Assembly: GCA_044229845.1 (NCBI GenBank)
Contig: JBGASG010000001.1
Coordinates: forward strand, 128,001 to 192,000
Length of the DNA stretch: 64,000 nt
Reading direction: 5' to 3'
DNA from: Candidatus Obscuribacteraceae bacterium
GTDB lineage: Bacteria; Cyanobacteriota; Vampirovibrionia; Obscuribacterales; Obscuribacteraceae
The notes beneath the pieces were generated by a model that was given only the letters and a program-made list of their open reading frames with translations, searched no databases and was not told the DNA's origin. Shown one piece after another: positions 2,569 to 44,500 of the stretch (position 1 is its first letter; every line of letters begins with the position of its first letter). A program made the translations under genes and the position numbers.

Positions 2569-2713
2569 ACGGTCACCTGCGGGCAATGGTGGCACACACT
2601 GGTCGATGTCCGTGTGCCTTTTGAACTAGTGCGTGGGTCTATCGTACTCCTGAATCGCTACGTGCGACCCGAATTTCATGTAAGGTTGATGCTCTGTTAC
2701 TTAGCGGATCATT

Positions 2714-5700
2714 TCAGCGCACGATCTCCGCGACAGACACACCGCCTTCTTTGCGCACGTGTATTTGCGTGGGAAACATCTCCTGCACCTCGGCAATATG
2801 GCTGACGACGATGATGCGGGCGAAGTCGCATGAAACTGCATTGATGGCGTTGAGCAAGCGATGGCGGCTGTCTTCGTCTTGCGAGCCGAAGCCTTCATCG
2901 ATGATCAGCGTCTCCAGCTTGGCGCCGGCGCGTCGTGCCAGAAGCCGTGAGAGAGCCAGTCTTAACGCGAAATTTACTTTGAAGGCTTCGCCGCCGCTGA
3001 AGAGTTCGTAATTGCGTGTACCGAGGTCGTCGGCGATGACAATGTCGAGCGTCTCAATCGCATTGCCCTGTCTGGTGCGCTGTTGCGTCAATAGCCCGAT
3101 GTGCATCTGGTTTTCTGTCAGGCGAGCCAGAATGCGGTTGGCTTCGCTTTCCAGCTCGGGAATGGCGTTTTCGATAATCAGCGCCTGGATGCCTTTCTTG
3201 CCTAAGGCCTCTGCCAGTTGCAGGAAATCGTTCATCTCATCGACTAGCTGGCGCAACTCTCCTTGCTTGCTCTGCATTGCTTCCAGCTTCTGAGTATGGT
3301 GCTCGATGTTTGCAGCTAACGCTCCGCGTTGCTGCAACAGCGCTGAGTGCGCTTCCTGAGCGGCTCGCAGCTCTTGCGTGGCGAGGTCGAGTCCGCTGGC
3401 TTGTTTTTCGCCTGCGCTGACATCTGCCTGCAGTTGTTGCAGTTCGCGCGCCAGGTCGTCTCGCTGGGCGGTTTTGACGCGTTTTGTCTCGGCAAGATTC
3501 AGTGCCTGCTGTTTCAAGGCCGGCATTTCCGCTCGAGCCAGACCCAGTTGCCTGAACTCCTCGACCATGGGCATCAACTCGTTCAACTCTTCGCGAACCA
3601 GTCCGTGCCGCGCCTGGTCATATTTATGTCCGGCGATTTCAGCTTCCAAATCGGAGAGCTGGACTCGTGTTTCGGCGGCGAACGTTTCGTCTTTGAGCTG
3701 CTGAGAATGCAAAGCAATGCGCTCGTCGAAAGCGGGCAGCTGCTGCTCGAGTTCAGCCAGCGACTGCAGGTCTTTTTGCAGCGTGTGATAGCGCACCTCG
3801 GCATGACGCTGGGCGCGCAACTGCGATTGCAAGCTTGAATAGATGATCGGGTCGAAGTCCATTTTGTGCAGCTCGGCTTTGATATTAATCAAGCTCTCGC
3901 GTTCGACTTGCGAGTATTCGTTGGCGGCAAGACGCTCTTCAAGCCGTTTTAGGTGTAAGAGCGTGTTTTCAAAAGCTGATTCGGCGCGGGCGATGGCGGA
4001 CTGTCGCTCGTTGTATTCGCCGATTTTTTGATCCAGCTGCTTGCGAGAAACGATCAGCTGGCGCAGTTCGCTGTATTGCGTGCGCAGCTGTGCCCGCTCA
4101 TCCTCGAAAGAAGCAACGCGGTTTTCCAGGTCGCTGATCTGGTGCTGGAAGTTGGCGGTCTGGTCGGCATAACGTTTGGCGACGGCGGCGCGATCGACGA
4201 TTGGTGAGGCGCAGAGCGGGCAGGTGCTGGCGTGCGGTTGGTGAATCAGTTCGGTGAGCTTGTCGTCGTTTTCCTGGCAACGACGCCGCAACTCGCGTAT
4301 TTCACTTTGCAGCGACTCGATTTCGCTCTTGATGCGCAAACCTTTCTCTTCGACCAGCGAAAACTCGGCATCGACCCGGTCGAGATCGCGAGCCTGCAAA
4401 ACCAACCCCTGCTGTTCGCTTTCGAGCGTAGCCTTGCTGTCGATCAAAAGCTTGAACTCGCTGAGCAAAGTTTGCTGGTTGCCGATTTCCGCTTCCAGTT
4501 TCATGCGGGCTTCGCCGATCATAAATTGCAGTTGCTCGGCGCGCGCCAGCAGGCTGGCATGCAATTCTTGCTGCTTCGTCAGAAGCGCTTCTTCGGCTGC
4601 CAGAGTCTTATATTCGTGATAAGCGCTTTCAATCTTTTTGCGGTCTTTAGTATCGCGTTGCAGCTTTTTACGGCGGGCGGTCAGCGCCACCACTTGCTCG
4701 CGCCAGTGATCGAGCTCGACTTCCATGCGCCCTTTCGCTTCGGCTAGTGCAGAGCGCAACTTCTGCCGGCGATCGAGCAGCTCGTGAACTGAGAGGGCCG
4801 CCTTGTCGAGCGACTGCAACTCTTCGGTCAGTTTTGAGAAACGCTGGTGCTCCGCATCAAGATGAGACGCGCGCCCCAGCAGTTTTTCGAAACGGCTTAT
4901 GGTGCCCTGCGTCGACTCGCTCTGGCTGGCGACGTTGTTCAAGTCGGCGACCAGTTCTGTATGCCGTTCTCGTTTGAGCGTCAGCATTTTATCGGCTTGG
5001 CGGCTGGCTTCCAGTGCTATCCGGAAGGTCTCTATGTCCTCCTGGTGGCGCGACATTTCAGCTTGCAATTCTTGCGCCGCTGCTGCCACCGCCTGCAGTT
5101 CGTCCGTGAGGCGAGCACGTTCTCGCTCACTTTCGACCACGTCGGGCAAAGTCGACTGCAGCTTTTCAATTTGAGCCTTGCGCAGGCGTGCCTCGTCCCG
5201 AGCCGCCTCTTGCAAGCGATCGAAGTATTTCAGTCCCAGTATCTCCGCCAGGACATCTTTGCGTTCGCCCGCGGATTTTTGTGTGAATTCATCCGCACGT
5301 CCTTGCCGCAGATAGACACTATTTATGAATGTGTCGTATTGCATCTTGAGGAGGTCGTTGATGCGCTGCTGGGTTTCTTTCATGCTGGCGGCGGTAAGGC
5401 TCACCCAGCGTTCGGACGGCGCGGTTTCTGTTGCCTGCCGGTCGGAGGCGGCAGCGGCAGGTTTCTTCGCTTTTGCAGAATTTGACGAACCGACGCTGCG
5501 CATGGGATTGACGCCATCGCGGCGGTGCGAAGACTCGCTGGTCTCTTGCCCGGGCTGTTGCAGCATTTGCAGTTCGAGCGTGCCGCGGGAGACGAGCTTG
5601 CCGCCGGGGCGCGGTGCATTGCGACTGCGCGAACGGCGGACACGATAGACCTGTCCGTTGAGAGAAAAGCGAACGTCGACCCACATCTCAGTCTGCCCGA

Positions 5701-22082: not shown

Positions 22083-23381
22083 TCAGATGAACAGCTTCTG
22101 CAGGTCTTGTGCGAAGCGCGGGTAAGAAACTGCTACGCAGTCGACGTCATCGATTTCCACCGGCGTCGTACACATCAAATTGGCGACGATGCCGGTCATC
22201 GCCATGCGGTGATCGCCGAAAGTCTCCCACTTGGAGCCGCCGGACAGCGAGCCGCCTCTGCCGATGATTTCGAAACCGTCTTTGAATTCGGTGATCTCGG
22301 CGCCGGCTCGTCTGAGGTTCCCAACGATTGCGGCTAGGCGGTCGCTTTCCTTGACTCGCAATTCTTCCGCATCTCTGACGACGAACGAGCCGCTGCAAAC
22401 AGCGCCTGCCAGAGCCAAAATCGGAATCTCGTCGATGCCGGTGGCGATTCTGGTGCCGTCGATTCTGGCTCCATTCGGGTAGCGATCGTATTGCACTCGA
22501 ATGTCGGCAACCGGTTCGCCCGTCGGGTGTTCTTTGCGATTAATTTCTACATTCATCCCCATCGATGCCAGGACATCCACAATCAGCATGCGGCCTGGGT
22601 TTATACCGACATTGGTGAGCAGCAGTTGTGAGCCGTGCAGGCAGCCCGCCGCCACCATAAAGAATGCCGCCGACGAAATATCGCCAGGCACCTGCACCGA
22701 ATATGGTGCCAAGGGCTGCGACAGTTTCTTCACTGAAACAGTCTGGTCCTTTTCTTCGAACGGCAGCCCCATGAAGGAGAAAAACTTGGTTGTATGGTCG
22801 CGCACAGGCTTAGGCAGTTTGACGCTGGTTTCGCCTTCCGCTTGTAGCCCGGCCAGCAAAATAGCTGTCTGCACTTGCGCTGACGCCACCGGCAGAACGA
22901 AATGTTGTCCCTGCAGCTTGCCACCCTCGATGGTGAAAGGTGGGTGGTCCTGTTTCTCGTTATAAGAGATCTGCGCCCCCATGGTTTTCAGGGGATTGAG
23001 AACCCTGCCCATCGGGCGCCCCCGCAGCGAATCGTCGCCGTCAAAAGTGGAGGCAAAGGGCTGCCCGGCAGCAAGACCCGCCAGCAGCCTGATGGTGGTG
23101 CCGCTGTTGCCGGCATCGAGCGTCTCTTCTGAAGCCTGCAGGCGTTTTAAGCCCGGGCTGACAACTGTGCATTCAGAGCCGTCGGCTGAAAAAGTCGTCT
23201 TCAGACCGAGCGACTCCAGGCAACGCGCGGTTGAGCGCACGTCTTCTGCAGGCGATAAATGCTGGACTTTGCACTCACCTTCCGTGAAGGCGGCGAACAT
23301 GAGCGCGCGATGCGATATGGACTTATCGCCGGGAACGCGCAACTCGCCTCGCAGAAGCGGTCTTTCTGTGGATTGCGTCAT
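22083..23381 (-). CDS. aroA: EPSP synthase (class II)
   Basis: PGDKSISHRA, DAGNSGTTIRL, ASAQV, RDHT, PGDISSAAF, IDEIP, ELRVKESDRL, GDHRMAM. Confidence 0.96.
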   Translation of the reverse strand: MTQSTERPLLRGELRVPGDKSISHRALMFAAFTEGECKVQHLSPAEDVRSTARCLESLGLKTTFSADGSECTVVSPGLKRLQASEETLDAGNSGTTIRLLAGLAAGQPFASTFDGDDSLRGRPMGRVLNPLKTMGAQISYNEKQDHPPFTIEGGKLQGQHFVLPVASAQVQTAILLAGLQAEGETSVKLPKPVRDHTTKFFSFMGLPFEEKDQTVSVKKLSQPLAPYSVQVPGDISSAAFFMVAAGCLHGSQLLLTNVGINPGRMLIVDVLASMGMNVEINRKEHPTGEPVADIRVQYDRYPNGARIDGTRIATGIDEIPILALAGAVCSGSFVVRDAEELRVKESDRLAAIVGNLRRAGAEITEFKDGFEIIGRGGSLSGGSKWETFGDHRMAMTGIVANLMCTTPVEIDDVDCVAVSYPRFAQDLQKLFI

Positions 23382-23468
23382 TACATCACATCCTGCGTGC
23401 GACTGCGCACCGCAATGACGTCATATTGTAAGATGTAGCGCGTTGCCGACCCAGCCAATTGAATTTGC

Positions 23469-24719
23469 ATGTTGCGGTTTTTAACATCCGGAGAGTCACA
23501 CGGACCAGCGTTGATCGCCATTTTAGATGGCGTGCCGGCCGGATTGCAGATTGATATTGCCGCTGTCAATGCGGAACTGGCGCGCCGGCAGCAAGGCTAC
23601 GGACGCGGCGCTCGCCAGAAGATCGAGACCGACACCGCCGAAATCATGGGCGGCGTCCGCCATGGTATTACATCTGGTGCACCGATCTCGATCATGGTGC
23701 GCAATCGCGATCACAACAACTGGTTGCATGTTATGTCGATCACTCAGGTGATGGCTGACGATCCGGCTGTGGCGGAGCAGATTGAGAAAAAGAAGATTGG
23801 TCGGTTTCGTCCCGGACATGCGGACCTGGCTGGTACTTTGAAGTTTCGTCAGCGCGATATCCGCGATGTTCTGGAAAGGGCCAGCGCCCGCGAGACCGCC
23901 GCGCGCGTAGCGGTGGGAGCGATCTGCGAACAGATACTGCAGCAGTTCGACGTGCGGGTGGTCAGTCATGTAGTGCAAGTCGGCTCGATCAGATCTTCTC
24001 AGTCCAGCGAAGACCTGCCGATGGACGAGCTGAGAAAGCGCGTCGCCGCCTCCGATATGTTCTGCGTCGACGAAGCCGCCGAAACAAAAATGAAGGATCT
24101 GATTAAAGAAACCTGGCAGCAGGGCGACACCATTGGCGGTGTGGTCGAAGTGATCGCTGAAGGGTTACCGGTCGGACTGGGCAGCTACACCCAGTGGGAT
24201 GAGAAACTCGACGGTCAACTGGCGCAGCTGGTCATGAGCGTGCATGCTATCAAAGCTGTGGAGATCGGTGACGGTTTCGAAAACGTCAACAGTCCCGGTT
24301 CCGAGGTTCACGACGCCATCTATCCCGCGTCAGAGCAGCTGCCATTTATGCGCAAGACTAACAAAGCGGGTGGGCTGGAAGGCGGCATGACTAATGGCAG
24401 CCGCGTCAAAGTGCGCGCTTACATGAAACCGATTCCGACATTGATCAAAGGACTGCCCTCCGTAAGCTTCCCGCAGTTCGACGCCCAGCAAGCGCACTAC
24501 GAGCGCTCTGACGTGTGCGCGGTGCCGGCTGCCTCGGTGGTCGTGAAGGCGATGGTGTCATTCGGGTTGACCCGGGCTCTGCTCAACAAGTTCGGCAGCG
24601 ACACCATGCCGGACATTTCCGCCGCTATCAGTTCTTATCGCGAATTCTGCCGCGAGGCGCCCGCCCGTTTTGCAGCTTCGCTTGCTACCAGCGCGACCCC
24701 CGACATGGAGCTGGAATGA
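23469..24719 (+). CDS. aroC: Chorismate synthase
   Basis: LTSGESHG, RRQQGYGRG, RPGHADL, ERASARETA, GGLEGGMTNG, MKPIPTL, ERSDVCAV. Confidence 0.96.
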   Translation: MLRFLTSGESHGPALIAILDGVPAGLQIDIAAVNAELARRQQGYGRGARQKIETDTAEIMGGVRHGITSGAPISIMVRNRDHNNWLHVMSITQVMADDPAVAEQIEKKKIGRFRPGHADLAGTLKFRQRDIRDVLERASARETAARVAVGAICEQILQQFDVRVVSHVVQVGSIRSSQSSEDLPMDELRKRVAASDMFCVDEAAETKMKDLIKETWQQGDTIGGVVEVIAEGLPVGLGSYTQWDEKLDGQLAQLVMSVHAIKAVEIGDGFENVNSPGSEVHDAIYPASEQLPFMRKTNKAGGLEGGMTNGSRVKVRAYMKPIPTLIKGLPSVSFPQFDAQQAHYERSDVCAVPAASVVVKAMVSFGLTRALLNKFGSDTMPDISAAISSYREFCREAPARFAASLATSATPDMELE

Positions 24720-24722
24720 GCA

Positions 24723-25880
24723 ATGCGCCGACACTCTCAGTCGCTTCATAAGACGCCGCTTCTGACGTTTCTTTCCAAAGTAGACGTGAGCAACACGACG
24801 CGCATCGACTTGGGAGTCAATGCGCGCGCCAACATCCCCAGCGCTCTCAAGCAGCTGGGCGCCGGCAGCCGGGTCCTGGTCCTCACGCAGCGCGAAATTG
24901 CCATCGACTGGCTGGACGACATCGTCAAGCCGCTGGAAGCCGCCTCCTTTTCGGTGGACGTGATGGAGTTGCCGACCGGCGAAGCCTGCAAGTCGCAGAC
25001 TCAGTTGATTCAGATCTGGGAGCAGTTGCAAAAGCGCTCGTTTCAGCGCTCCGATACGCTTCTGGCATTGGGCGGCGGCGCGGTTACTGATGTCGCCGGC
25101 TTCGCAGCGTCCACCTATCTGCGCGGACTGACACTATGCCTGGTGCCCAGTACGTTGCTGGCGCAGGTCGATGCATCAATCGGCGGCAAGACCGGCATCA
25201 ATTTAGACGCGGGCAAAAACCTGGCCGGCACCTTCTACTTCCCGCAGCTGGTGACCGTCGATCAGGAGTTGCTCGCTTCGCTGCCAGACCGTGACTTCAC
25301 ATCCGGCATTGGAGAGATCATCAAATACGCGATGATCGAGAAGACGGTGGCCGAAGAATCCGAGTACGCAGCTGGTCCGCGCAGCATGTTTCAGCTGTTG
25401 CAGCAAATGGCGCCGGAGCTGTCTTTCGAACATCCGGCGATGGGCAACATCATAGCTGCCAGCATCAAGATGAAACTGGCAGTTGTTGCTCGCGATCCAT
25501 ATGAAAAGCGACTTCGACGTATTCTCAATCTCGGGCACACCTTCGGGCATGCTATCGAGAAGGTCAGCAAATATAGCTGGACTCACGGCGAAGCTGTGGC
25601 GGTGGGCTTATTGTTTGCCATGCAGGTATCGCGCCGTCTCGGCAAGGTGGACGATGCGCAGATCGAGGTCGTGCGCACGTTGCTTTCACAGTGCAAATTG
25701 CCGGTTGGGCTGTCTGCCGACCTGGACCGCGCCGCGCTTTTCGACGCCATGGCATACGACAAGAAACGCGCCGGGCAATCAATTCGCTTTGTGCTGCCGC
25801 TCAGAGAACTCGGTACTGCCGATGTCGACTCGGAAATTTCTTTAGATGAACTTCGTCACTGTGTTGAGGACTTTCAATGA
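24723..25880 (+). CDS. aroB: 3-dehydroquinate synthase
   Basis: GEACK, ALGGGAVTDVAGF, PSTLLAQVDASIGGKTGIN, LNLGHTFGHAIE, HGEAVAVG, DKK. Confidence 0.95.
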   Translation: MRRHSQSLHKTPLLTFLSKVDVSNTTRIDLGVNARANIPSALKQLGAGSRVLVLTQREIAIDWLDDIVKPLEAASFSVDVMELPTGEACKSQTQLIQIWEQLQKRSFQRSDTLLALGGGAVTDVAGFAASTYLRGLTLCLVPSTLLAQVDASIGGKTGINLDAGKNLAGTFYFPQLVTVDQELLASLPDRDFTSGIGEIIKYAMIEKTVAEESEYAAGPRSMFQLLQQMAPELSFEHPAMGNIIAASIKMKLAVVARDPYEKRLRRILNLGHTFGHAIEKVSKYSWTHGEAVAVGLLFAMQVSRRLGKVDDAQIEVVRTLLSQCKLPVGLSADLDRAALFDAMAYDKKRAGQSIRFVLPLRELGTADVDSEISLDELRHCVEDFQ

Positions 25881-26722
25881 ACGTGATTGCCTTCCAGGGT
25901 GCGCCGGGAGCATTCAGCCATCAAGCAGCCATCAAGCTGGGTGAGGGCATGAATGAGCCTTACGAATTGCTCTCGCAAGACTCATTCGAGAAGGTCTTCA
26001 AGCTGGTGGCAGGCGGCGGTCATCTTGGTGCGGTGCCGCTGGAAAACTCGTCGGTCGGATCTATTGTCGCCAACTACGACTCGCTCTGGAACGAGCCTGT
26101 ATTCATGATTGCCGAGACCTACATCCCGATTCATCACCAGTTGATTGCCATCGAGGGAACGGACATCAACGAGATCACCGAGGTCTACTCGCATCCGGTG
26201 GCGCTCGACCAGTGCCGGAAGTTGTTCAAAGAATTTCCCCATATGAAACCTCGGGTGCACTGGGACACGAGCGGTTCGGCGCTCTATGTGCGGGATCAGG
26301 GCAAGCGAAGCAATGCCGCCATCGCCAGCGAAATGGCGGCGCGCGAAGCCGGACTGTCGATCATTCGCACCAATGTGGAAGACCACTCCAGCAACACCAC
26401 GCGGTTCGGACTGATTACGGCCAACAAGAAACTGCGCATGCACGAAGGTCCGCACAAGTTGTCGTGTGCGTTTGAGCTGGAACATACATCGGGCAGCCTG
26501 GCGCAGTTGCTGACTCGCATCGCCGCAGTGGGCGCCAATTTGTCCAAAATAGAATCACGACCGATTCCGCAAACCCCGTGGCACTACCGATTTTTCCTCG
26601 ATGTCGAGGTGTTGGACGGCAAGCAGGAAGACGCCGTCATCGATGCTTTGCAGGGAGCGGCAAAAGCCAAGGTGCTGGGCTGCTATGTGAAAGCCCTGGA
26701 AGTGAGCGGCGTCTCGGCATAG
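25877..26722 (+). CDS. pheA: Prephenate dehydratase with ACT domain
   Basis: AFQGAPGAFS, PLENS, YSHPVALDQC, NTTRF, NLSKIESRP, YRFFLD. Confidence 0.93.
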   Translation: MNVIAFQGAPGAFSHQAAIKLGEGMNEPYELLSQDSFEKVFKLVAGGGHLGAVPLENSSVGSIVANYDSLWNEPVFMIAETYIPIHHQLIAIEGTDINEITEVYSHPVALDQCRKLFKEFPHMKPRVHWDTSGSALYVRDQGKRSNAAIASEMAAREAGLSIIRTNVEDHSSNTTRFGLITANKKLRMHEGPHKLSCAFELEHTSGSLAQLLTRIAAVGANLSKIESRPIPQTPWHYRFFLDVEVLDGKQEDAVIDALQGAAKAKVLGCYVKALEVSGVSA

Positions 26723-26737
26723 CCATACGGACGGTGA

Positions 26738-26980
26738 CTACTTTGCGTCGGGGCTGGGGTTGTCCAGGAACGCGCAGACGCAAATATAGATCCAAGCCGG
26801 GGTGAACCAGCCGGCGAACAGGTTTATCAAAATGATGCGCAGCTTGTCATGTTTCTTCCTGAAAAGCCCCACGATGGAGGGCAGGAAGAAAGTCAGGAAC
26901 GAGAAAATCATCGGCAGCCCAAAGAAAAGGAAGAGCAGGACGAAACCCAGTATCGTGTTACCGGTATCTGATGACTGCAC
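26738..26980 (-). CDS. Superinfection-immunity (T4 Imm-like) small membrane protein
   Basis: FFLPSIVGLFRKKH...IILINLFAGWF..AWI resembles the FLPxxxA..R.H....I..LN.F.GWT..GW pattern. Confidence 0.7.
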   Translation of the reverse strand: MQSSDTGNTILGFVLLFLFFGLPMIFSFLTFFLPSIVGLFRKKHDKLRIILINLFAGWFTPAWIYICVCAFLDNPSPDAK

Positions 26981-27024
26981 GGATATTCTCCAATCGTTCG
27001 ACCATTGAATTATACTTACCCGAT

Positions 27025-27549
27025 ATGAAACTATTCGCAGTTCTCGCCCTTATTTTGTTCGTCGTCTTCCATACCGGCACCGGCTGTGCGTGGAGCCAGG
27101 ACAGCGACTCGTCGTCGAGTTACAGCGACTCCTCATCGACCGACAGCTCCTCTTCCAGCGATGATAGTTCGTCTTCGAGCGATGCCGGTTCCTCATCCAG
27201 CGATGACAGTTCGTCTTCGAGCGATGCCGGTTCTTCATCCAGCGATGACAGTTCGTCCGGCGATAGCTCGGCTGCGAGCGAATCAGGATCGAGTGATAAG
27301 AAGGACAATCTCGCCAATCTGGAGGCGCTGGTCAACATAATGGGCGCCTGGGGGATGGGCGCCGGCATTGTGACTTCGTGCAGCTTATTCCTGAGCGGGG
27401 TGATTATCATAGGGTTGCGCAAGACCAAGCGCTGGCTGGGCGGCATTCTTATAGGCTGGAGCTTCTTCTCTTTCGGCGGTGCCATCATGTGCCCCGCAAT
27501 TCTCAACTGGATAATGGCGAGCGCCAAAGACGCCAACCTATTCTCCTAG
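27025..27549 (+). CDS. Exported/membrane protein with Ser/Asp-rich linker and two C-terminal TM helices
   Basis: Signal MKLFAVLALILFVVF, poly-Ser tract, hydrophobic hairpin with basic loop RKTKR. Confidence 0.7.
   Translation: MKLFAVLALILFVVFHTGTGCAWSQDSDSSSSYSDSSSTDSSSSSDDSSSSSDAGSSSSDDSSSSSDAGSSSSDDSSSGDSSAASESGSSDKKDNLANLEALVNIMGAWGMGAGIVTSCSLFLSGVIIIGLRKTKRWLGGILIGWSFFSFGGAIMCPAILNWIMASAKDANLFS
27154..27257 (+). repeat. 42-bp tandem repeat (~2.5 copies) encoding SSDDSSSSSDAGSS
   Basis: TCCAGCGATGAYAGTTCGTC starts at 27154, 27196 and 27238. Confidence 0.9.
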
Positions 27550-29841: not shown

Positions 29842-30681
29842 ATGACGAAACGGTTTCTCCTCTCGCTATTCATGTTTCTCGCGCTGTCCCTGGCGGCGCT
29901 GACGACGCCGCCCAGTTTTGCGCAGACCGCGCCAGCCGAGCCCGCTTCCGCCACTCAAGACGCGCCGCCGACCGCAGCCGCCCCGCCCGCCAGTCCGGTG
30001 ATTCAATCTGCGCCATCATCCGTGCGCAACTTGTTTTACGCGTATCTCGGTGAACAGCCGGAGTCGTCAGCGGGACCGGTGGAGACCCTTGTCGTGGAGA
30101 AGATGTTTCCCGGCAAAACAATCGAGCAAACGCCTTTCGGGATGCAGAAGTACCGCCCGATGCTGCAACTTCGCTACTGGGCGAATCAACGGCAGCACTT
30201 TTTGCCGGCATTTGCTTTTTGCCTGGGCGCAGCGTCCATTCTCTGGATCCCTTTTGGGAAGAAACTCGAAGCAGCCGCTTCCATCAGCCGCAGCCGTTTC
30301 TGGCGTTCGTTGTTTGTAGGTGTCATGGTCTCGATGGTGACGCTGTTTCTCGCCAAACTATTTTTCGTTTCAGGCGTCGGTTGGCCGGCCGGCATCCTTA
30401 CTATCGCAATTCTTCAACTAGCCATGACCGGTGGTCTCGTCGTCATGACCAATATCATCGGCGAAGCAATTGCACGCGTACTGCGCCTCACGCATATCGG
30501 ATTCATAGCCGAGCGCCCCGTCGTCCAGCGCGGCGTTTTTCTAATTCTTGGCTCGGTCATCCTGGCCGGCATCATCCTCATACCGGGACCCGGCAAGCTG
30601 CCTCCGATCGGCACGCGTTTGATTATGCTCTTCGCGCTGGTTGGACTGGGTGCGCTCTACAAATCGCACTTCAAGCGCTAA
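29842..30681 (+). CDS. Multi-pass membrane protein with signal peptide
   Basis: Signal ending SFA|Q, about five hydrophobic segments; last gene of the sigma operon. Confidence 0.7.
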   Translation: MTKRFLLSLFMFLALSLAALTTPPSFAQTAPAEPASATQDAPPTAAAPPASPVIQSAPSSVRNLFYAYLGEQPESSAGPVETLVVEKMFPGKTIEQTPFGMQKYRPMLQLRYWANQRQHFLPAFAFCLGAASILWIPFGKKLEAAASISRSRFWRSLFVGVMVSMVTLFLAKLFFVSGVGWPAGILTIAILQLAMTGGLVVMTNIIGEAIARVLRLTHIGFIAERPVVQRGVFLILGSVILAGIILIPGPGKLPPIGTRLIMLFALVGLGALYKSHFKR

Positions 30682-31889
30682 TCGAGCAAAATCCGCGCAG
30701 CTTTGAACGCCGTAGCAATTGCATTCTTGTCGCCATTCTCAATGGCGGCGCGTAAAGAAACCAGCTGCGCCACCAATCCATCGACGGTGGCGACGACTTC
30801 GGACGAGTTGTCCAGCAGTATTTCCGTCCACAATTCATGCGGGCTGGCCATCAACCGCGACAACGACTGGAAGCTGGGTCCCGCCGTCGCGCGCAGCACG
30901 GAAAGTTTCTCCTCAGAGAGTTCTTCGACCAGACTGGCACCGAGCGCGGTGGCGACCAGTTGAACAATATGACTGATGCGGGCTGCGACTTCGTCGTGAG
31001 TGCGGGCGTCCATGACGTGCACGGCAAGACCCATCGCGTTGAGCCATCGAGACAACCGCAAGACAGAGAGTTCAGATGATTTGCTGGTGGGGGTCAGGCA
31101 GAAGGTCTTGCCGGCGACAACTACATCGCGCGAGCCGGCGAGTCCGCTTTTTTCGGTTCCGAAAAACGGATGACCGCCAATAAAGTCGGCGCCCCCCAGG
31201 TCGAGTTCGTCGGCGACCGCACAAATGGTCCCTTTGGTCGAACTGACGTCGACGACTACTTGATTCGGTCCGAGATGCGGAGCCAGCCGGCGCAACAACT
31301 CGACGTTGGCAGCAGGCGGCGCGCACAACAAAATCAGCGTTGCCGACGACGGCACTGATTCTATCGATGCGCTGGCATCGATCAGTTTCTCCTGAATGGC
31401 AGCTTGCAGCACTTCGTGCCGGTCGCAGCCGATAATGCGGCTCTCCGGCAAGACTGCTCGCATGCGTCGGGCAAGCGCCCCGCCGATTAAGCCAAGCCCG
31501 ACAATCATTACTTCGTTGAAGTAAATCGGCCCGGCGGCGACGCTGGTTTTGGCGACCTGCAGGTCGCGGCTCTGGGAGAGGATTGTCTGGTAGACAGCGG
31601 TGATTGCCGAGACGATGTCGCCGTCTTTGCTTACTTCTGAAATTCCGGCAAGCACTTGTTTTTCGCGTTCTCTGTCACGGACGGGAATGGCGGCGGCATT
31701 TTTGATGTCCGCGACCATCAAGGAGAGTTGCATCCGTTCTGAAAGAAGACGCATCAGAAGGGCGTCGACATGATCGATTCGGTTGCGAATCGAGCTGAGC
31801 GGTGTGTCTTCCGCTTTAGCTTTGGCATTGTCCTGGCTGGCTGCCTCGCCGGCGTTTGCTCTGGAGGCGCTCCACTCACTGTCTCCCAC
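30678..31889 (-). CDS. tyrA: Chorismate mutase (AroQ-type)/prephenate dehydrogenase fusion
   Basis: IRNRIDHVD..LMRLLSERM..K...VRDRERE; IVGLGLIGGALA, DVSSTK, GGHPFFGTE, HDEVAARISH, RLMAS..LW. Confidence 0.88.
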   Translation of the reverse strand: MGDSEWSASRANAGEAASQDNAKAKAEDTPLSSIRNRIDHVDALLMRLLSERMQLSLMVADIKNAAAIPVRDREREKQVLAGISEVSKDGDIVSAITAVYQTILSQSRDLQVAKTSVAAGPIYFNEVMIVGLGLIGGALARRMRAVLPESRIIGCDRHEVLQAAIQEKLIDASASIESVPSSATLILLCAPPAANVELLRRLAPHLGPNQVVVDVSSTKGTICAVADELDLGGADFIGGHPFFGTEKSGLAGSRDVVVAGKTFCLTPTSKSSELSVLRLSRWLNAMGLAVHVMDARTHDEVAARISHIVQLVATALGASLVEELSEEKLSVLRATAGPSFQSLSRLMASPHELWTEILLDNSSEVVATVDGLVAQLVSLRAAIENGDKNAIATAFKAARILLD

Positions 31890-31903: not shown

Positions 31904-32812
31904 TTACCGGCGAGCGGCTTGCTGGGCATGCTGCGGATGACGAAGCACGGCGACGTTGTCGCGGTGTTCGACTGCCGGTTGATCGACTTCGGCCACCGAG
32001 CGTCCGACAGCTTTGGCAATCGGGCGCAGGCTGGCTACCAGGGCGATCATGTCTTCCAGCGAGAGCGCCTGACGAGCGTCAGAAACGGACTCTTCCGGAA
32101 TCGGGTGACATTCGATCATGAGACCGTCGGCGCCGCAGGCGACAGCGGCGCGAGCCAGGTCGGCGACCAGTTCGCGTTTTCCGGCAGCGTGGCTGGGGTC
32201 GGCGATGACCGGCAGGTGGGTGAGTTGCTTGAGGGCAACTACAGCGCCCAGATCCAGGACGTTACGGGTGTAGGTGTCGAAGGAGCGGATACCGCGCTCG
32301 CAGAGGATGACGTTCGGGTTGCCGTGGGCGAGGATGTATTCGGCAGCCAGGATCATCTCTTCAATTGTGGCGGAGAGTCCACGCTTGAGCATGACCGGGG
32401 TCTGCACCTGACCGGCGGCTTTGAGGAGGTCGAAGTTTTGCATGTTGCGGCTGCCGATTTGCAGCATGTCGGCGTGCTGGGCGACCAGCTCGACTTTGTC
32501 GGGCGACATGACTTCGGTGACGGTGGGGATGCGGTGTTTGCGGCTGCAATCCGAAAGGATGGAGAGTCCGTTGTCACCCATTCCCTGGAAGGAGTAAGGG
32601 GAGGTCCGGGGCTTGAATACGCCGCCCCGCAGCATTTGAACGGGCGCTTCCGCCAGTTTGGTGGCGACGAGTTCCATCTGCTCGACGCTTTCGACTGTAC
32701 AGGGACCGCCGATGATGAGCAGCTGTTCCCCACCCACCACACAGTCTTCGCCGATGCGAATCTGGCTTACGTGGGTGGGGTTCTGTTTACTTGCTAGTTT
32801 TGCCTCTGACAC
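31904..32812 (-). CDS. aroF: DAHP synthase, type I-beta, catalytic barrel only
   Basis: [62 protein letters not shown] before GTG. Confidence 0.95.
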
Positions 32813-32861
32813 GGTGACACTCTCCTTTTCCTGAACTGAATTGAAAACTTCGTGGGTGCTG

Positions 32862-32897
32862 AAAAACGAACCCGGACCTTGCTTGCTGGGGTCCGGG
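32862..32897 (-). terminator. Attenuator terminator 2
   Basis: Minus strand CCCGGACC-ccagcaagcaa-GGTCCGGG followed by TTCGTTTTT. Confidence 0.85.
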
Positions 32898-32925
32898 CGG
32901 GTGGCATTTCTAAATGCGGCACTAC

Positions 32926-32988
32926 TTAACCCGGGAACCCCCTGGCAAAAAAGAAGTAGCCGTAAAACCAGTTGCGTTGCGTAGTCAT
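32926..32988 (-). CDS. Attenuator leader peptide 2: MTTQRNWFYGYFFFARGFPG
   Basis: ATG at 32988, TAA at 32926-32928; 7 of 8 consecutive codons are Trp/Phe/Tyr; 3' end can pair with the terminator 5' arm. Confidence 0.88.
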   Translation of the reverse strand: MTTQRNWFYGYFFFARGFPG

Positions 32989-33021
32989 AACTTCGTGAAT
33001 CTATCCTTTGCGAAAGGCTCT

Positions 33022-33055
33022 AAAAACGAAAGGACCGCAGAACTTGCTGCGGTCC
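33022..33055 (-). terminator. Attenuator terminator 1
   Basis: Minus strand GGACCGCAG-caagtt-CTGCGGTCC followed by TTTCGTTTTT. Confidence 0.88.
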
Positions 33056-33080
33056 ACCTGGAGTGCGTTGAGCTATCAGC

Positions 33081-33131
33081 TCATGCCAGGTGAACCTCAG
33101 GGAACCAAAAATAAAAGTAGGCGGTGGTCAT
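33081..33131 (-). CDS. Attenuator leader peptide 1: MTTAYFYFWFPEVHLA
   Basis: ATG ACC ACC GCC TAC TTT TAT TTT TGG TTC CCT GAG GTT CAC CTG GCA TGA; six consecutive aromatic codons. Confidence 0.9.
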   Translation of the reverse strand: MTTAYFYFWFPEVHLA

Positions 33132-33191
33132 TTTCGTTGTGATTCTCTATTTATGGCGTGTCGCGGCGCTTTTTCCGCAGCACGTAGACCC

Positions 33192-33220
33192 ATGGTAATT
33201 GCTGGGTTGGATTCGGTCAA
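33192..33220 (-). promoter_or_regulatory. sigma70-type promoter for the leader-aroF-tyrA transcript
   Basis: Minus strand TTGACC (33220-33215), 17-nt spacer, TACCAT (33197-33192), about 60 nt upstream of leader 1. Confidence 0.7.
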
Positions 33221-33234
33221 CCCAAATGTAACGC

Positions 33235-33309
33235 AAAAAGAAAAGGCATCCGCAGAACAAGCATAACTAATCGATTTCGATATTTAAGTTCATGCGAGAC
33301 TGCGGATGC
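33235..33309 (-). terminator. Long imperfect hairpin with U-tract, probably insulating the aroF promoter
   Basis: GCATCCGCAG (33246-33255)/CTGCGGATGC (33300-33309) with partial inner pairing; followed on the minus strand by CTTTTCTTTTT. Confidence 0.5.
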
Positions 33310-33551
33310 TGTAAAGACTACTGTAACAAGAAATCTTCCAGACGGGAAGCCGTTTTCGGATCAAAAATCCAGAATTTTTTGAGGGGAGATCCGATAAAGA
33401 TCGCATCCCGGGATTAACAACCGGCCACGTTAAGCCAGGCAAGCGGAAAAGCCATCTATTTATGTAAGTGACGAGACGGCTCCGGCGACAGCCAATGCCG
33501 CCCTTCGACGGCCGAGCGGGCCCATCGGAACCGGAAATGAGCCAGGAGAGC

Positions 33552-33707
33552 CTAGTGTCCAGCCTCGGATGCGGTGGTGTCTTCTTCGATGTTTTTGTCG
33601 GTGAAGAACACGCCGTGCGCGCCCATCATGCTCAGACCGATTACCCAGCCGCCCATAATGGCTAAAAGCCAGAACCACTGACCGGCACCTTGATGCAATA
33701 AATCCAT
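33552..33707 (-). CDS. Small single-TM protein (51 aa, MDLLHQGAGQWFWLLAIMGGW...)
   Basis: ATG at 33707 after AGGAAAAG; hydrophobic segment then acidic tail. Confidence 0.6.
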   Translation of the reverse strand: MDLLHQGAGQWFWLLAIMGGWVIGLSMMGAHGVFFTDKNIEEDTTASEAGH

Positions 33708-34381: not shown

Positions 34382-35485
34382 ATGAGATTCAGATCCAAAG
34401 AATTGCTGCCAGTGCTCGCCATTACCTTGGTCGGCGCCAATTCAGCGGCTGTTGCAGGTCCACAATCGGTTTTGGACCCTTATGCCAGCATTTCGGCACC
34501 GGCCGAGCTTCCGACCACCAAGCAGCAGCAAAAGCTGAAAGAGAAGCTGAAGAAACAGAAGAAGCCGCAAATGGCTCAAGAATTGTATGCACCACAGACG
34601 GTGCAAGAACAACCGACCACCGTCATGCAAACTCCGACGACGGTGATTCAAGAAACCCAGCGCCCCAAGCAAGCGAAAGCGGCTCCGGCGGCAACGCAAT
34701 CTACTCAAGCGGCAGCCCCGGCTTCGGTCGGTGGTGGCGGTAGTGACGACCCCAGCTTCCTCGGCGGTGCCAAGCAAATGACCGGTGCCATGGTCAACAG
34801 CACCAAGCAAGTCGGCTCTGGTATCGCTAACGGTGCCAAGTTCGTGGGCGGCGGTTTCATGAGCGGCGGTAAGAAGGCCGGCGGCGGCATCATGAGTGGT
34901 GCCAAAGCAGTCGGACATGGCTTCGCGGTTGCCGGCGGCAAGGTCAAAGACGGAACTATCGGCGCAGGCGAGAAAGTCGCCGGCGGCGCCAAAGCGGTCG
35001 GTTCGGGCATTGCCTCTGCCGGAGAAAAAGCCAAAGACGGCGGCGGTCACATCGGCTCCAAGCTGGTGGCTGTACCCAAAGCGATCGGCAGCGGACTGAA
35101 AGTCGGCGGCGAGAAATTTGTTGACGGCACCAAGGCTGTCGGCGGCGCCATCGCCGGTGGTACCAAGGCCGTGGGCGGCGCTGTCACCGGCGGCACCAAA
35201 GCCGTAGGCGAGAAAGTAGCTGACGGCACCAAAGCGGTGGGCGGCAAGGTTGCAGACGGCACGAAGGCAGTCGGCGGCAAGGTTGCCGACGGCACGAAGG
35301 CTGTCGGCAGCGGCGCCGTAGCGGCTGGCGATAAAGCCAAAGGCGGAATGGGCGGCGCAGTCGCCGGCACCGGCAAAGCAATCGTCGCCGTACCCGGCAA
35401 AATGATCGGCGGCTTGTCTAAGCTCAACCCCTGGCACAAGAAAGATGGTCAGGTCGCCATGCCTCAAGGCAAAGACACCCACTAA
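34382..35485 (+). CDS. Secreted Gly/Ala/Lys-rich protein with 11-residue repeats (GTKAVGGKVAD)
   Basis: Signal-like LLPVLAITLVGANSAAVA; repeated G[TA]KAVG with 11-aa spacing. Confidence 0.8.
   Translation: MRFRSKELLPVLAITLVGANSAAVAGPQSVLDPYASISAPAELPTTKQQQKLKEKLKKQKKPQMAQELYAPQTVQEQPTTVMQTPTTVIQETQRPKQAKAAPAATQSTQAAAPASVGGGGSDDPSFLGGAKQMTGAMVNSTKQVGSGIANGAKFVGGGFMSGGKKAGGGIMSGAKAVGHGFAVAGGKVKDGTIGAGEKVAGGAKAVGSGIASAGEKAKDGGGHIGSKLVAVPKAIGSGLKVGGEKFVDGTKAVGGAIAGGTKAVGGAVTGGTKAVGEKVADGTKAVGGKVADGTKAVGGKVADGTKAVGSGAVAAGDKAKGGMGGAVAGTGKAIVAVPGKMIGGLSKLNPWHKKDGQVAMPQGKDTH
35124..35310 (+). repeat. Degenerate 33-bp tandem repeat (GGCACCAARGCNGTNGGC...)
   Basis: About six copies visible within the 11-mer protein gene. 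Confidence 0.75.
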
Positions 35486-41513: not shown

Positions 41514-44500
41514 TCAGATCGATACTCTGTTGACGAGAACTTTGGCGCCGGTTGGAAATGTAGTTTTTATGGCATCCGAAAGTTCAACACAAGCATCTAC
41601 CCAAAACTGGCTGCCGACAAGTACCGTCTGGTTAGATTTGCCCTGTGGGAAGTGAAGAAGCACCGGGTCGTCCCCCTTGTAAGAGGCCAGGATGCTCTTC
41701 AAGCGGTGCAGGTCGGTAAAAGACTGCTCCTGCGTGAAAAATACGTTGACCAGATGTGCATCGGAAATGCGGCGCACGGCGTTAGCCATGATCGAGATTT
41801 CGTTGTCGTCGCCTTTCTTTATCTTTCCCTTGACGAGAACCAGCGACCGCGGAATTAGCACATCCGGTGAAAGTTTCTCGAGCGTCTCGGAATAGATGAC
41901 CACTTCTGTTTTGCCGGTCAGATCTTCCAGGTGCAAGATTGCCAGCAGTTTGTTGGTCTTGGTTAGTTTCTTCTCGATACCGGTTGCCAGACCGCCCAGG
42001 ATCACGGTCGATCCGTCTTTGCACTCGGAGACCTCACGCAGTTGATGGGTGGTCAGCCAGCGCAGGCGGTTGCACACCCTCTGCAACGGGTGACTGGTGA
42101 CGTAAAATCCGAGCAATTCGTGCTCCATGGTTTGCAGGTCGTGCTCGGAAAATTCCGTGTCGTCGCCCTTGAGGGCAGTGACGGTCTCCATGGCGGTGCC
42201 GCCGCCGATGCTGAACAGACTGATCTGTCCGGTGGCTTTCTGACTCTGGCGACGGTTGGCAGTGTCCACCAGCGAATCGAGATTGTTGAGTGCTTTTTTG
42301 CGAGAAACATTCAAGCTCAGGCAAGCGCCGCAGCGAATCAATGATTCTATGGCGCGCTTGTTAACGATGCGCAGATCAATGCGTTCGAGGAAGTTGTGAA
42401 TGCTGTCGTATTTGCCCTCGGCTTCGCGCTGCGCAACGATCTCGGCAACGGCCGCTTCGCCGACGTTGCGCACGGCCGACAATCCGAAGCGAATCGTGTT
42501 GCCGTCGGCAGTGAAATCGCTTCCCGAGACGTTGATATCGGGAGGCAGAATGTCGATACTCATCGCCTGGCATTCAGCGATGTATCCCTGCACCTTATCT
42601 TGTTCGCCGCTGACGCTGGAGAGCAGCGCGCACATGTATTCGACCGGGTAATGCGTCTTGAGATAGGCGGTCTGGTAGGTCAGGAATGCATAAGCTTGCG
42701 AGTGCGACTTGTTGAAGCAGTACTCGGCAAACTGCACCATGACGTCGAAAAGATTGTTGGCTTTGTCCGAGGCGATGGCATTTTTGGCGCAGCCGCTGAC
42801 GAAGATCTCGCGCTGCTTTTCCATTTCTTCGGGCTTTTTCTTACCCATGGCGCGGCGCAGTAAGTCGGCTTGTCCGAGGCTATATCCACCCAGTTGCTGA
42901 GCCACTTGCATGATCTGTTCTTGATAGACGATCTGCCCGTAGGTGTCTTTCAAGATCGGCTCAAGGTGCGGCGTCACATAGGTGATCGGCGCCTTGCCGT
43001 TTTTGCAGGCGATGAATTTGTCGATCATACCGGTGTCCAGCGGACCCGGACGATAGAGCGCGATCAGCGCCGATAAGTCTTCCATGCCGGTCGGCTTCAT
43101 GTCGCGCGCCACCTGGCGCATGCCGGCTGAAGTTTCTAACTGGAATATCCCTGCCAGGTCGCCGTTGCTGATGGTCTGGTAGGTCTGTTCGTCGTCGAGC
43201 GGCAACTCGTTGGGGACTATTTCTATGCCGCGAGTTTCTCGCAAAATTTTGACCGCTTTGTCGATCATGGTCAGGTTGCGCAGACCGAGGAAGTCCATCT
43301 TAACCAGCCCGACATAAGCCAGGTCTTCCATGTAGTACTGAGCGATAACCGTGCCGTCGTTGTTGCGCTGCAAGGGCACCAGCTCTTCCAGCGGTACGTC
43401 ACCGATGACCACGCCGGCGGCGTGCATACCGAAAGTTTTGTTGACGCCCTCAAGTTTCTTCGCCAGATCAATTACCTGACGCGCCTCGTCGTTGGTGGCA
43501 TAGACTTTCTTGAACTCGGGATGTTCGTCGACCATCTCTTCCAGGGGTGTCGGCTTGCCGCGCACCACGGGCACCATCTTGGCCAGTTTGTTGGATTCGG
43601 CGAACGGAAATTCCAGCACGCGAGCGATGTCTTTCAACACCGCCTTACTGGTCATGCGGTTGAAAGTAATAATCTGGGCGACGCGATCTTCGCCGTATTT
43701 TTGCGAGACGTATTTGATGACGGCGTCGCGACGTTCGATGCAAAAGTCGGTGTCGATATCGGGCATCGACTTGCGCTCGGGGTTGAGGAAACGCTCGAAC
43801 AGCAAGTTGTACTTAATCGGGTCGATGTCGGTGATGCCGAGCGCGTATGCGATCAACGAGCCGGCGGCGGAACCGCGTCCCGGTCCGACTGGAATGCCGT
43901 TGTCGCGCGCGTAGCGAATGAAGTCCGAGACGATCAGGAAGTACGACGCGAAGTTCATGTCGCAGATGACTTTCAATTCGATACGCGCGCGATCGATGAC
44001 TTCCTGCGCGAGCGGACCGCCCGGGAAGTGGCGCTTCAGACCTTCGAATACGAGATAGTCGAGGAAAGTTTCATCGGTATGGCCGGGAGGCACTTGAAAC
44101 ACCGGCAGTCGCGGGTCGCCGGCCAGCTTGACCATATCGATTTTGTCGGCAATCTCCAGGGTTGAACGCAGCGCTTCTTCGATGTGTTCGTCGTCGTAGT
44201 GGTCGCGGAACAGATGCGACATTTCGTCGCCGTTTTTGATGTACTCCCAACCGGTGAATTTCATGCGGTTGGTATCGGTGACCAGTTTGCCCATTTGCAC
44301 GCAGAGGAGCGCGTCGTGAGCCATGGCATCTTCTTTGTCGGTGAAGTGGCTGTCGTTGGTGGCGCACAGCTTGATGCCCAGTTCGCGGGACAATTTCAGG
44401 AGCGGGCGATTGACCTTGCGGTCTTCCCACATGCCGTGATCTTGCACTTCAATGTAATAGTTGTCGCCGAAGACTTCCTTGTACCAGGCGGCGCTCGCTT

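Follow-up and report, generated by a model that had tools for sequence, protein, structure and literature searches.

Two putative leader-peptide attenuators in series upstream of the DAHP synthase gene aroF in a Candidatus Obscuribacteraceae bacterium and its relatives

Introduction

The trpL and pheL leaders of E. coli are the classical single leader-peptide attenuators. A single attenuator with Phe-Tyr-Phe codons, aroR, is described upstream of the DAHP synthase gene aroF in Corynebacterium glutamicum (Neshat et al. 2014, cited in PMC11802643), and the Acholeplasma uORFC-13-1 motif is a predicted upstream ORF with Phe codons plus a terminator before aroF (PMC8632094). In Synechocystis, a small translated ORF before aroQ, Sml0012, has been suggested to encode an attenuator peptide (bioRxiv 10.64898/2025.12.20.695498); that text mentions neither aroF, DAHP nor a leader peptide. 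Tandem arrangements are also known: two short ORFs in the single leader of Salmonella mgtCBR steer alternative stem-loops, described by the authors as ‘a singular example’ (PMC3641672), tandem T-box riboswitches are reported as common in the Bacillota (trp, ilv/leu and thrS; PMC12452182), and tandem riboswitches can be pseudo-cooperative (PMC9481103). For cyanobacteria, a paper of 2016 states that there were ‘no reliable data’ for attenuation (PMC4833913).

Here we analyse two leader-peptide modules upstream of aroF in a Candidatus Obscuribacteraceae bacterium (assembly GCA_044229845.1). They lie in a window of 64,000 nt, the whole stretch of DNA under study (contig JBGASG010000001.1, positions 128,001 to 192,000), and were proposed in a sequence-only reading to be a double attenuator sensing Phe, Tyr and Trp. 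Coordinates are window positions unless a contig is named.

Results and discussion

Anatomy of the element

The minus strand from 33220 to 32862 carries, in order, a promoter match, leader 1, terminator 1, leader 2 and terminator 2, and aroF is the next gene (Table 1). The coordinates, leader translations and pairings given in the sequence-only reading were reproduced letter for letter on this strand, including the two antiterminators, the first of which pairs at 14 of 15 positions (one of them G.U) with one A.G mismatch, and the second as quoted, with a 2-nt bulge. Terminators 1 and 2 have folding energies of -16.3 and -16.6 kcal/mol and tails of UUUCGUUUUU and UCGUUUUU, respectively, both U-tracts being broken by CG. 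A simple hairpin scan does not return terminator 2 because its loop is longer than 8. The promoter is the sole site from a promoter scan of 32600-33600, a scan which by itself is no better than chance (shuffles 0.5 +/- 0.5), and conservation adds support to it (see below). A scan of the whole genome (5.16 Mb) for ATG ORFs with five aromatic codons in seven followed by a hairpin and U-tract returned two matches, leader 1 and one unrelated sequence, leader 2 having failed the strict U-tract filter. No Rfam family was matched at threshold by the window element (best E 0.15, far below gathering) and seven related loci gave no matches, on which grounds T-box or riboswitch identity was rejected.

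Directly upstream of the attenuator promoter, 33309-33235 (minus strand) can fold (-26.7 kcal/mol) into a stem of 10 bp that closes a long, structured loop and is followed by a U-tract. It may terminate an upstream transcript or be a small RNA of ~75 nt, and a candidate extended -10 promoter (33349-33321, minus strand) is located near it. A small ORF of about 50 aa, probably membrane-anchored, lies upstream of the leader at 33552-33707 (minus strand), and short hydrophobic ORFs of similar look precede the leader in loci L010 and L152. Parts of the window are represented in 21 RNA runs. Contigs over the leader region were present in all four metatranscriptome runs examined (four studies), such contigs showing no ends, strand or level and possibly including DNA. 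Those of two runs extend upstream past the promoter as far as 33291-33292 and end inside the 33309-33235 hairpin, which may reflect read-through, another RNA or DNA.

Table 1. Features of the double element, its downstream genes and single leader candidates elsewhere in the same genome (window positions unless a contig, C, is given).
Feature	Location	Strand	Remarks
Sigma-70-type promoter	33192..33220	-	TTGACC-17-TACCAT; putative transcription start ~33185
Leader peptide 1	33081..33131	-	16 aa, six aromatic codons; control codons Y5-F10 at 33119-33102; conserved ORF
Antiterminator 1, 5' arm	33086..33100	-	11-bp core 33096-33086; includes SD-like GAGGT at 33098-33094
Start-X-stop mini-ORF	33076..33084	-	ATG AGC TGA; 4-nt overlap with leader-1 stop; putative function
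Antiterminator 1, 3' arm	33047..33061	-	lower 9 nt are the 5' arm of terminator 1
Intrinsic terminator 1	33022..33055	-	stem 33055-33032 plus U-tract
Leader peptide 2	32926..32988	-	20 aa, eight aromatic codons; control codons W7-F14 at 32970-32947; conserved
Antiterminator 2, 5' arm	32929..32946	-	arm 32941-32929; alternative local fold with 32946-32940 (fold only)
Antiterminator 2, 3' arm	32888..32898	-	the entire 5' arm of terminator 2
Intrinsic terminator 2	32862..32898	-	stem 32898-32870 plus interrupted U-tract
aroF, class I-beta DAHP synthase	31904..32812	-	barrel only, without N-terminal ferredoxin-like regulatory domain
Chorismate mutase / prephenate dehydrogenase fusion (tyrA-type)	30678..31889	-	second gene of the operon
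trpE leader candidate	C19 ~41635-41725	+	Trp-Trp-Trp; no U-tract terminator; ends 20 nt before gene
hisG leader candidate	C14 ~76275-76440	+	six His; single
leuA and ilvD leader candidates	C3 192325 and 190432	-	Leu-rich and Ile/Leu/Val-rich; single
Met-rich leader peptide	C3 ~200472-200310	-	strong terminator; before gene resembling a Cys/Met-metabolism PLP enzyme (sequence reading)

Conservation in the family and the phylum

A close aroF (E at most 1e-88) was found in 75 of 104 family genomes, and all 103 such loci were classified, by regular expressions and, for 11 loci, by eye. Both modules are present at 78 loci from 24 genera; one further tandem is cut by a contig end, one locus carries module 1 twice, and the rest comprise 8 single-module loci, 2 with a doubtful second module, 12 without a module and 1 that is truncated. 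At the genome level, 64 of the 75 have a tandem-type locus. Single-module loci occur in three genera and at L295 and L298, and 11 of the 12 leaderless loci form one paralog clade, the twelfth following trpA. The locus with module 1 twice in tandem, replacing module 1 plus module 2, is L026 (genome G002), the only clear case of module duplication and an independent route to a double attenuator. A common origin of modules 1 and 2 is not supported, their local similarity scoring 18.2 against 15.8 for shuffled sequences and module 2 scoring 24.0 against the ilvD attenuator of the same genome. In several lineages (L004, L011, L015, L021, L189 and relatives) a variable N-terminal stretch lengthens leader 2 to 40-54 codons, and the control run keeps its distance to the antiterminator.

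A wider search of 121 genomes of the phylum identified 18 genomes of another class, 4.7-8.4 Mb in size and by inference oxygenic cyanobacteria, with an aroF 62-73% identical to that of the family. Their modules are recognisably homologous to those of the family at the nucleotide level, with both present at 16 loci, module 2 only at one and module 1 only at one. No leader-plus-terminator was found at 19 more distant DAHP synthase loci, 18 of which have at least 58 in-frame codons upstream of the aligned barrel, nor at 6 and 2 further DAHP synthase loci. A genome of another order has one divergent single leader (L224), which was missed by a covariance model of module 1 run on 151 genomes of the class; strong matches of this model (E below 1e-11) were confined to the family, and nine weak ones (L252-L260) were dropped as they have no DAHP synthase nearby. 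A loose pattern scan of genome contigs gave at least 120 stretches, the matches listed all being from unrelated taxa, and was not used. Family and other-class cassettes are nested in free trees (quick and FastTree) and the AU test does not reject monophyly of the family (p 0.556), the presence of the cassette in two classes being compatible with both transfer and inheritance.

Covariation and promoter conservation

Pairing was evaluated in an alignment of module 1 (43 sequences drawn from 78, at most three per genus and without a few divergent ones) and one of module 2 (35 of 46 extracted sequences, divergent types having been excluded earlier), against shuffles that ignore relatedness. In antiterminator 1, both partners vary at 11 of 14 pairs, a count equalled in 0 of 500 shuffles, and in terminator 1, 97.9% of cells are paired and three pairs have compensatory changes; none of 500 shuffles matched the percent paired or the covariation score of this module, and slid partners gave 28-62%. 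Antiterminator 2 is 81.9% paired with 23 cells changed on both sides, and terminator 2 is 87.8% paired with 37 (0 of 500 shuffles for each), the count of compensatory pairs alone being within the range of shuffles for module 2 (116/500 for the antiterminator and 58/500 for the terminator). All four helices were above all slid controls.

By consensus matching only, a TTG..-16/18-TANNNT promoter lies within 170 nt of leader 1 at 38 of 39 homologous loci, as compared to 3 of 39 control windows. The same matching placed a promoter-like site between the modules at 1 of 39 loci, where it is located inside leader 2. With one promoter before leader 1 and none between the modules, the modules stand in series. 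A separate internal promoter, named in the sequence-only reading as grounds for giving up its proposal, was therefore not found, and its further suggestion that related aroF upstream regions be searched is borne out by Phe/Tyr/Trp upstream ORFs at the 78 tandem loci and by the covarying stems. Conserved leaders, covarying antiterminators and terminators and a single upstream promoter together support two trpL/pheL-type attenuators in series, each of them under selection. Since architecture and covariation are kept in about 100 relatives, we regard the element as more than chance: judged from these sequences, the double element is real and conserved, and very probably functional.

Control codons and joint evolution of the leaders

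Leader 1 has 5.6 aromatic codons per 8 in frame, compared to 1.5 and 1.9 in the other frames, and leader 2 has 6.0 compared to 1.3 and 1.5, a contrast inflated by choosing the codon stretch on its aromatic content. The control runs use TTT, TTC, TAT, TAC and TGG. Among 74 tandem loci, the two leaders share the same amino acid set at 66, and all three amino acids are present in both at 39. The proposal that each leader reads all three in a different order thus describes about half of the loci as regards the set; different order as a design rule was rejected, as Trp comes first in leader 2 at only 27 of the 74. The control runs of both leaders have Trp at 53 loci and neither has it at 21, leaving none discordant (one if whole leaders are counted, owing to a late Trp in L191), and discordant loci number two for Tyr and six for Phe. 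Parsimony places five Trp changes in each leader and five jointly; as a rough null, random placement of five changes never came within three discordant tips in 20000 trials. Phylogenetically independent pairs are few, with 3 same and 0 opposite for Trp (p 0.25) and 1.8 same and 2.1 without change for Phe.

Paralogs in one genome specialise in both leaders, being Tyr-only and Phe/Trp in genus g55, Phe-only and Tyr/Trp in g13, and Phe/Tyr and Trp in g3. In g13, a prephenate dehydrogenase gene follows none of the five Phe-only copies and five of the six Tyr/Trp-type copies. Series logic predicts joint evolution of the codon sets, since a codon carried by one leader brings nothing while the other leader lacks it; joint evolution would equally arise from one selective cause shared by two independent switches. 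A full Tyr-only tandem cassette also lies before PvcA-, TauD- and FAD-monooxygenase-like genes rather than aroF (L261, genome G017, contig C20, ~2650-3030, minus strand), suggesting that the cassette moves as a unit. Its leaders have Cys codons where relatives have Trp.

Ribosome position and folding

Ribosome stalls were modelled by constrained folding of partial transcripts with footprints of 12, 13 and 15 nt. For module 1, with 13 nt from the P site covered (37 loci), the antiterminator has a probability of ~0.9 when the ribosome stalls between 13 and 8 codons ahead of the stop, and this drops to 0.26 at 7 codons, ~0.1 at 6 and 0 at the stop itself. The aromatic codons of leader 1 are found 13 to 7 codons before the stop, with Trp at position 8 in 59 cases, and so the control codons stop exactly where a stalled ribosome would start covering the antiterminator. 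In the model, position 8 is the last site at which a leader-1 stall still works, and the last Phe of leader 1 is borderline. For module 2 of the window, the 5' arm of the terminator is sequestered to 0.89-0.98 by stalls at W7-F14 and to 0.08 with the ribosome at the stop, and this module switches in the model in 22 of 24 genera; for module 1, a loose measure of sequestration put the number at only 16 of 28. Folding with and without a footprint, which had been put forward as a check, went the way anticipated for partial transcripts, stalls freeing the antiterminators and the stop position blocking them.

At full-length equilibrium with a stalled ribosome, the terminators of the window still largely form (0.82-0.90 for module 1 and 0.57-0.98 for module 2), and genus means of terminator formation for modules 1 and 2 are 0.44 and 0.72 when stalled versus 0.87 and 0.96 at the stop. 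As the terminators mostly win at equilibrium, switching requires the antiterminator to fold ahead of them. Eight of 24 genera have only four T in the 9 nt after terminator 2, which may be leaky or otherwise acting there. SD sites before the leaders are weak. The local fold at the 5' arm of antiterminator 2 (Table 1) is a possible anti-antiterminator or pause hairpin.

Proposed mechanism and alternatives

The element shows the sequence features expected of a ribosome-mediated attenuator, namely clustered end-product codons, a terminator with U-tract, a covarying antiterminator and a fitting stall geometry, although a clearly covarying pause hairpin is not among them, and we consider it likely that it is a double, in-series ribosome-mediated transcription attenuator. 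One promoter would give a leader RNA of about 370 nt. When Phe-, Tyr- and Trp-tRNA are charged, the ribosome would reach the leader stop and cover the 5' arm of the antiterminator, and the terminator would fold. A stall at an aromatic codon would leave this arm free, allowing the antiterminator to capture the 5' arm of the terminator before the 3' arm is made, and polymerase would continue. We infer from the sequences that the leaders are translated, that transcription terminates at both hairpins, that starvation relieves termination and that the two outputs multiply. As both checkpoints must be passed, read-through would approximate the product of two probabilities, and DAHP synthase would be predicted to have a very low basal level and to be inducible over a wide range. 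In a toy model, 9-fold regulation per module becomes 81-fold for the pair with a Hill coefficient of 1.13 (range 1.07-1.16). Of the ‘tighter, steeper’ response initially expected of two attenuators, tighter is thus supported, the dynamic range being squared in this model, and steeper only to a small degree, the apparent Hill coefficient barely exceeding 1. The main gain from doubling would be a lower floor.

The alternative that survives best, which we nevertheless hold to be quite improbable, is that only one module terminates transcription while the other is a pause, a site of Rho-dependent or translational control or a redundant back-up, so that the outputs do not multiply. This would fit the weak U-tract of terminator 2 in the 8 genera mentioned above, the hairpin scan that finds no second terminator at several loci (for example L007, L009, L015 and L153-L155), the naturally occurring single-module loci, and the precedent of mgtCBR, whose two attenuators are described as additive and without intrinsic terminators (PMC3641672). 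It does not account for the covariation of both hairpins and both antiterminators, for long U-tracts after both hairpins in most cyanobacterial-type loci, or for the joint change of codon sets, which requires both leaders to matter; moreover, terminator 2 of the window ends about 45 nt before the aroF SD, which is therefore not sequestered.

A very small probability attaches to the leaders sensing another signal, such as UTP-sensitive polymerase pauses of the pyrBI type, metabolite-binding arrest peptides or general translation speed. TTT outnumbers every other control codon (150 of 379 for leader 1), the tail of leader 1 is nearly constant (E-V-H/R-L) and the A of GAG is conserved though unpaired, all of which could be read in this way. 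Against this, TAC, TTC and TGG are abundant, Tyr-only leaders are runs of TAC and TAT, codon composition tracks the paralog and the downstream branch, and the E-V-H tail appears to be fixed at the RNA level, as its H/R and CAC/CAT swaps follow pairing. That chance ORFs merely coincide with ordinary terminators of upstream transcripts, with no regulation at all, is barely credible, the single-sequence promoter and terminator counts close to shuffle levels being outweighed by all of the comparative results and by the occurrence of the pattern at none of the 19 other DAHP synthase loci.

A mini-ORF at the leader-1 stop

In the family, leader 1 mostly ends in GTGA or ATGA, one codon ahead of a second stop, and 9 nt upstream lies GAGGT, which can base-pair with the 16S 3' end present in the genome. 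A mini-ORF stop at this offset is present in 52 of 77 distinct modules, as compared to at most 6 of 77 at 18 other offsets. Lying two bases past the leader-1 stop, it swaps among TAG, TAA and TGA (nine parsimony changes, never TGG) and occurs in 50 of 60 modules with the RTG overlap versus 2 of 17 without, a start-stop link that is not significant on independent pairs. It is found in only 3 of 16 cyanobacterial-type modules, and the same stop pattern follows leader 2 in only 8 of 66. The mini-ORF bases can also pair locally with 33096-33090; the local hairpin of module 1 is 89% paired with weak covariation (15 and 7 of 500 shuffles), and RTGA and the first T are explicable by such a hairpin with the antiterminator arm. 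A role for the mini-ORF in catching -1 frameshifts was rejected for the window, where that frame already has a stop upstream at 33099-33097; elsewhere it may apply.

Termination-reinitiation at 4-nt overlaps with internal SD sites is described as established (PMC6728339), and the basal leak of the trp attenuator as set by ribosome release at the leader stop, an extra hairpin lowering the leak in his (PMC1183508). By analogy, local hairpin and mini-ORF may both be anti-leak devices. Selection for the mini-ORF stop seems probable. That the mini-ORF is an active clamp seems doubtful to us; its stop may only be a passive guard against stray re-initiation into the terminator. We are equally hesitant about the broadest reading of the data, a portable, codon-programmable double checkpoint that has, throughout the phylum, replaced feedback on the enzyme at the start of the shikimate pathway, complemented by the SD-like GAGGT and a re-initiating mini-ORF clamp that would close the antiterminator and remove basal leak.

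Downstream genes and pathway context

AroF of the window matches PRK08673 with 392.7 bits (cut-off 335) in an alignment that begins only at profile position 68, and the nearest Atlas cluster of the fusion protein encoded next to it is commonest in Candidatus Melainabacteria. An AroF paralog on contig C18 has a weak match to a ferredoxin-like domain (E 4e-5, below cut-off). A wide attenuator range would suit a DAHP synthase lacking the N-terminal feedback domain. This possible link to missing allostery is weakened by the 11 leaderless loci in a paralog clade with the same short enzyme type, and also by tandem loci encoding an enzyme with a fused C-terminal chorismate mutase, a fusion seen at L018, L025, L027, L189, L209, L211 and L215. 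At L023, L024 and L026, the next gene after DAHP synthase encodes a class II dehydroquinase.

Elsewhere in the window (22083-26722, 4-9 kb away), an aroA-like gene is divergent from an aroC-aroB-pheA-like operon, the 87 bp between them being too small for such a leader; the pheA-like call is a PDT family match, and the names aroA, aroC and aroB are a reading of the sequences. Low-complexity repeats occur in ORFs at 26971-27549 (Ser/Asp) and 34442-35482 (Gly/Ala/Lys, 11 residues).

In the same genome, trpE, hisG, leuA, ilvD and a Met-pathway-like gene are each preceded by one leader-peptide candidate (Table 1). This indicates that the attenuation machinery is in use and that only aroF has it doubled. 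Among leader peptides, those of the Met type are uncommon.

Comparison with known systems and significance

In having a short ORF with control codons and an antiterminator that competes with an intrinsic terminator, each module resembles trpL and pheL. These leaders and aroR have one leader and one decision point, whereas two complete modules are present here, usually with 5-8 control codons each and often covering all three amino acids. The closest likenesses in gene context were compared by description rather than sequence: aroR-aroF as a leader peptide before DAHP synthase (PMC11802643), uORFC-13-1, which is single, from another phylum and a prediction only (PMC8632094), and Sml0012, which shares the phylum and a shikimate gene but is 45 aa long, precedes a different gene and has a suggested translational role (bioRxiv 10.64898/2025.12.20.695498). 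The mgtCBR leader is described as responding additively to ATP and proline, without intrinsic terminators, in a virulence/Mg2+ operon (PMC3641672), whereas here the same signal set is repeated in 66 of 74 loci with two intrinsic-type terminators in a biosynthetic operon, and membership of the mgtCBR type was rejected on the basis of codon sets and terminators. Tandem T-boxes, as described, are the best functional analogue, with two sensor-terminator units in series responding to the same tRNA-charging signal (PMC12452182). T-boxes and riboswitches bind tRNA or ligand directly without translation, in contrast to the leader peptides of this element, and one T-box reads one tRNA, whereas each module here would pool up to three amino acids and could be retuned by codon changes.

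In the literature searched, we came across neither a pair of leader peptides that each have an intrinsic terminator nor a report of this element from cyanobacteria or Melainabacteria; supplementary lists (PMC2965389, PMC4833913 and the Synechocystis preprint) or surveys (Lopatovskaya 2010) could list such leaders. The sequence-only reading, which knew of no tandem peptide-attenuator of this kind, can be followed for that specific form and was too broad for tandem control in general, as mgtCBR (PMC3641672) and tandem T-boxes are described. What appears to be new is the in-series double form of classic leader-peptide attenuation, single aroF attenuators and both tandem systems being known already.

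If true, the element would represent a ribosome checkpoint of natural origin with two stages, equivalent among leader peptides to the tandem T-boxes, and a clear case of ribosome-mediated attenuation in a phylum that includes the cyanobacteria, for which the 2016 paper had found no reliable data (PMC4833913). The close homologues in apparent oxygenic cyanobacteria make the proposal testable in culturable strains, and it bears on the engineering of aromatic production in cyanobacteria. The natural series of single, double, duplicated, Tyr-only, Phe-only and Trp-only cassettes, together with the copy before a Tyr-using gene cluster, would amount to a ready-made experiment on retuning by a few codon changes, and on whether cells stack switches for less leak or for a sharper response.
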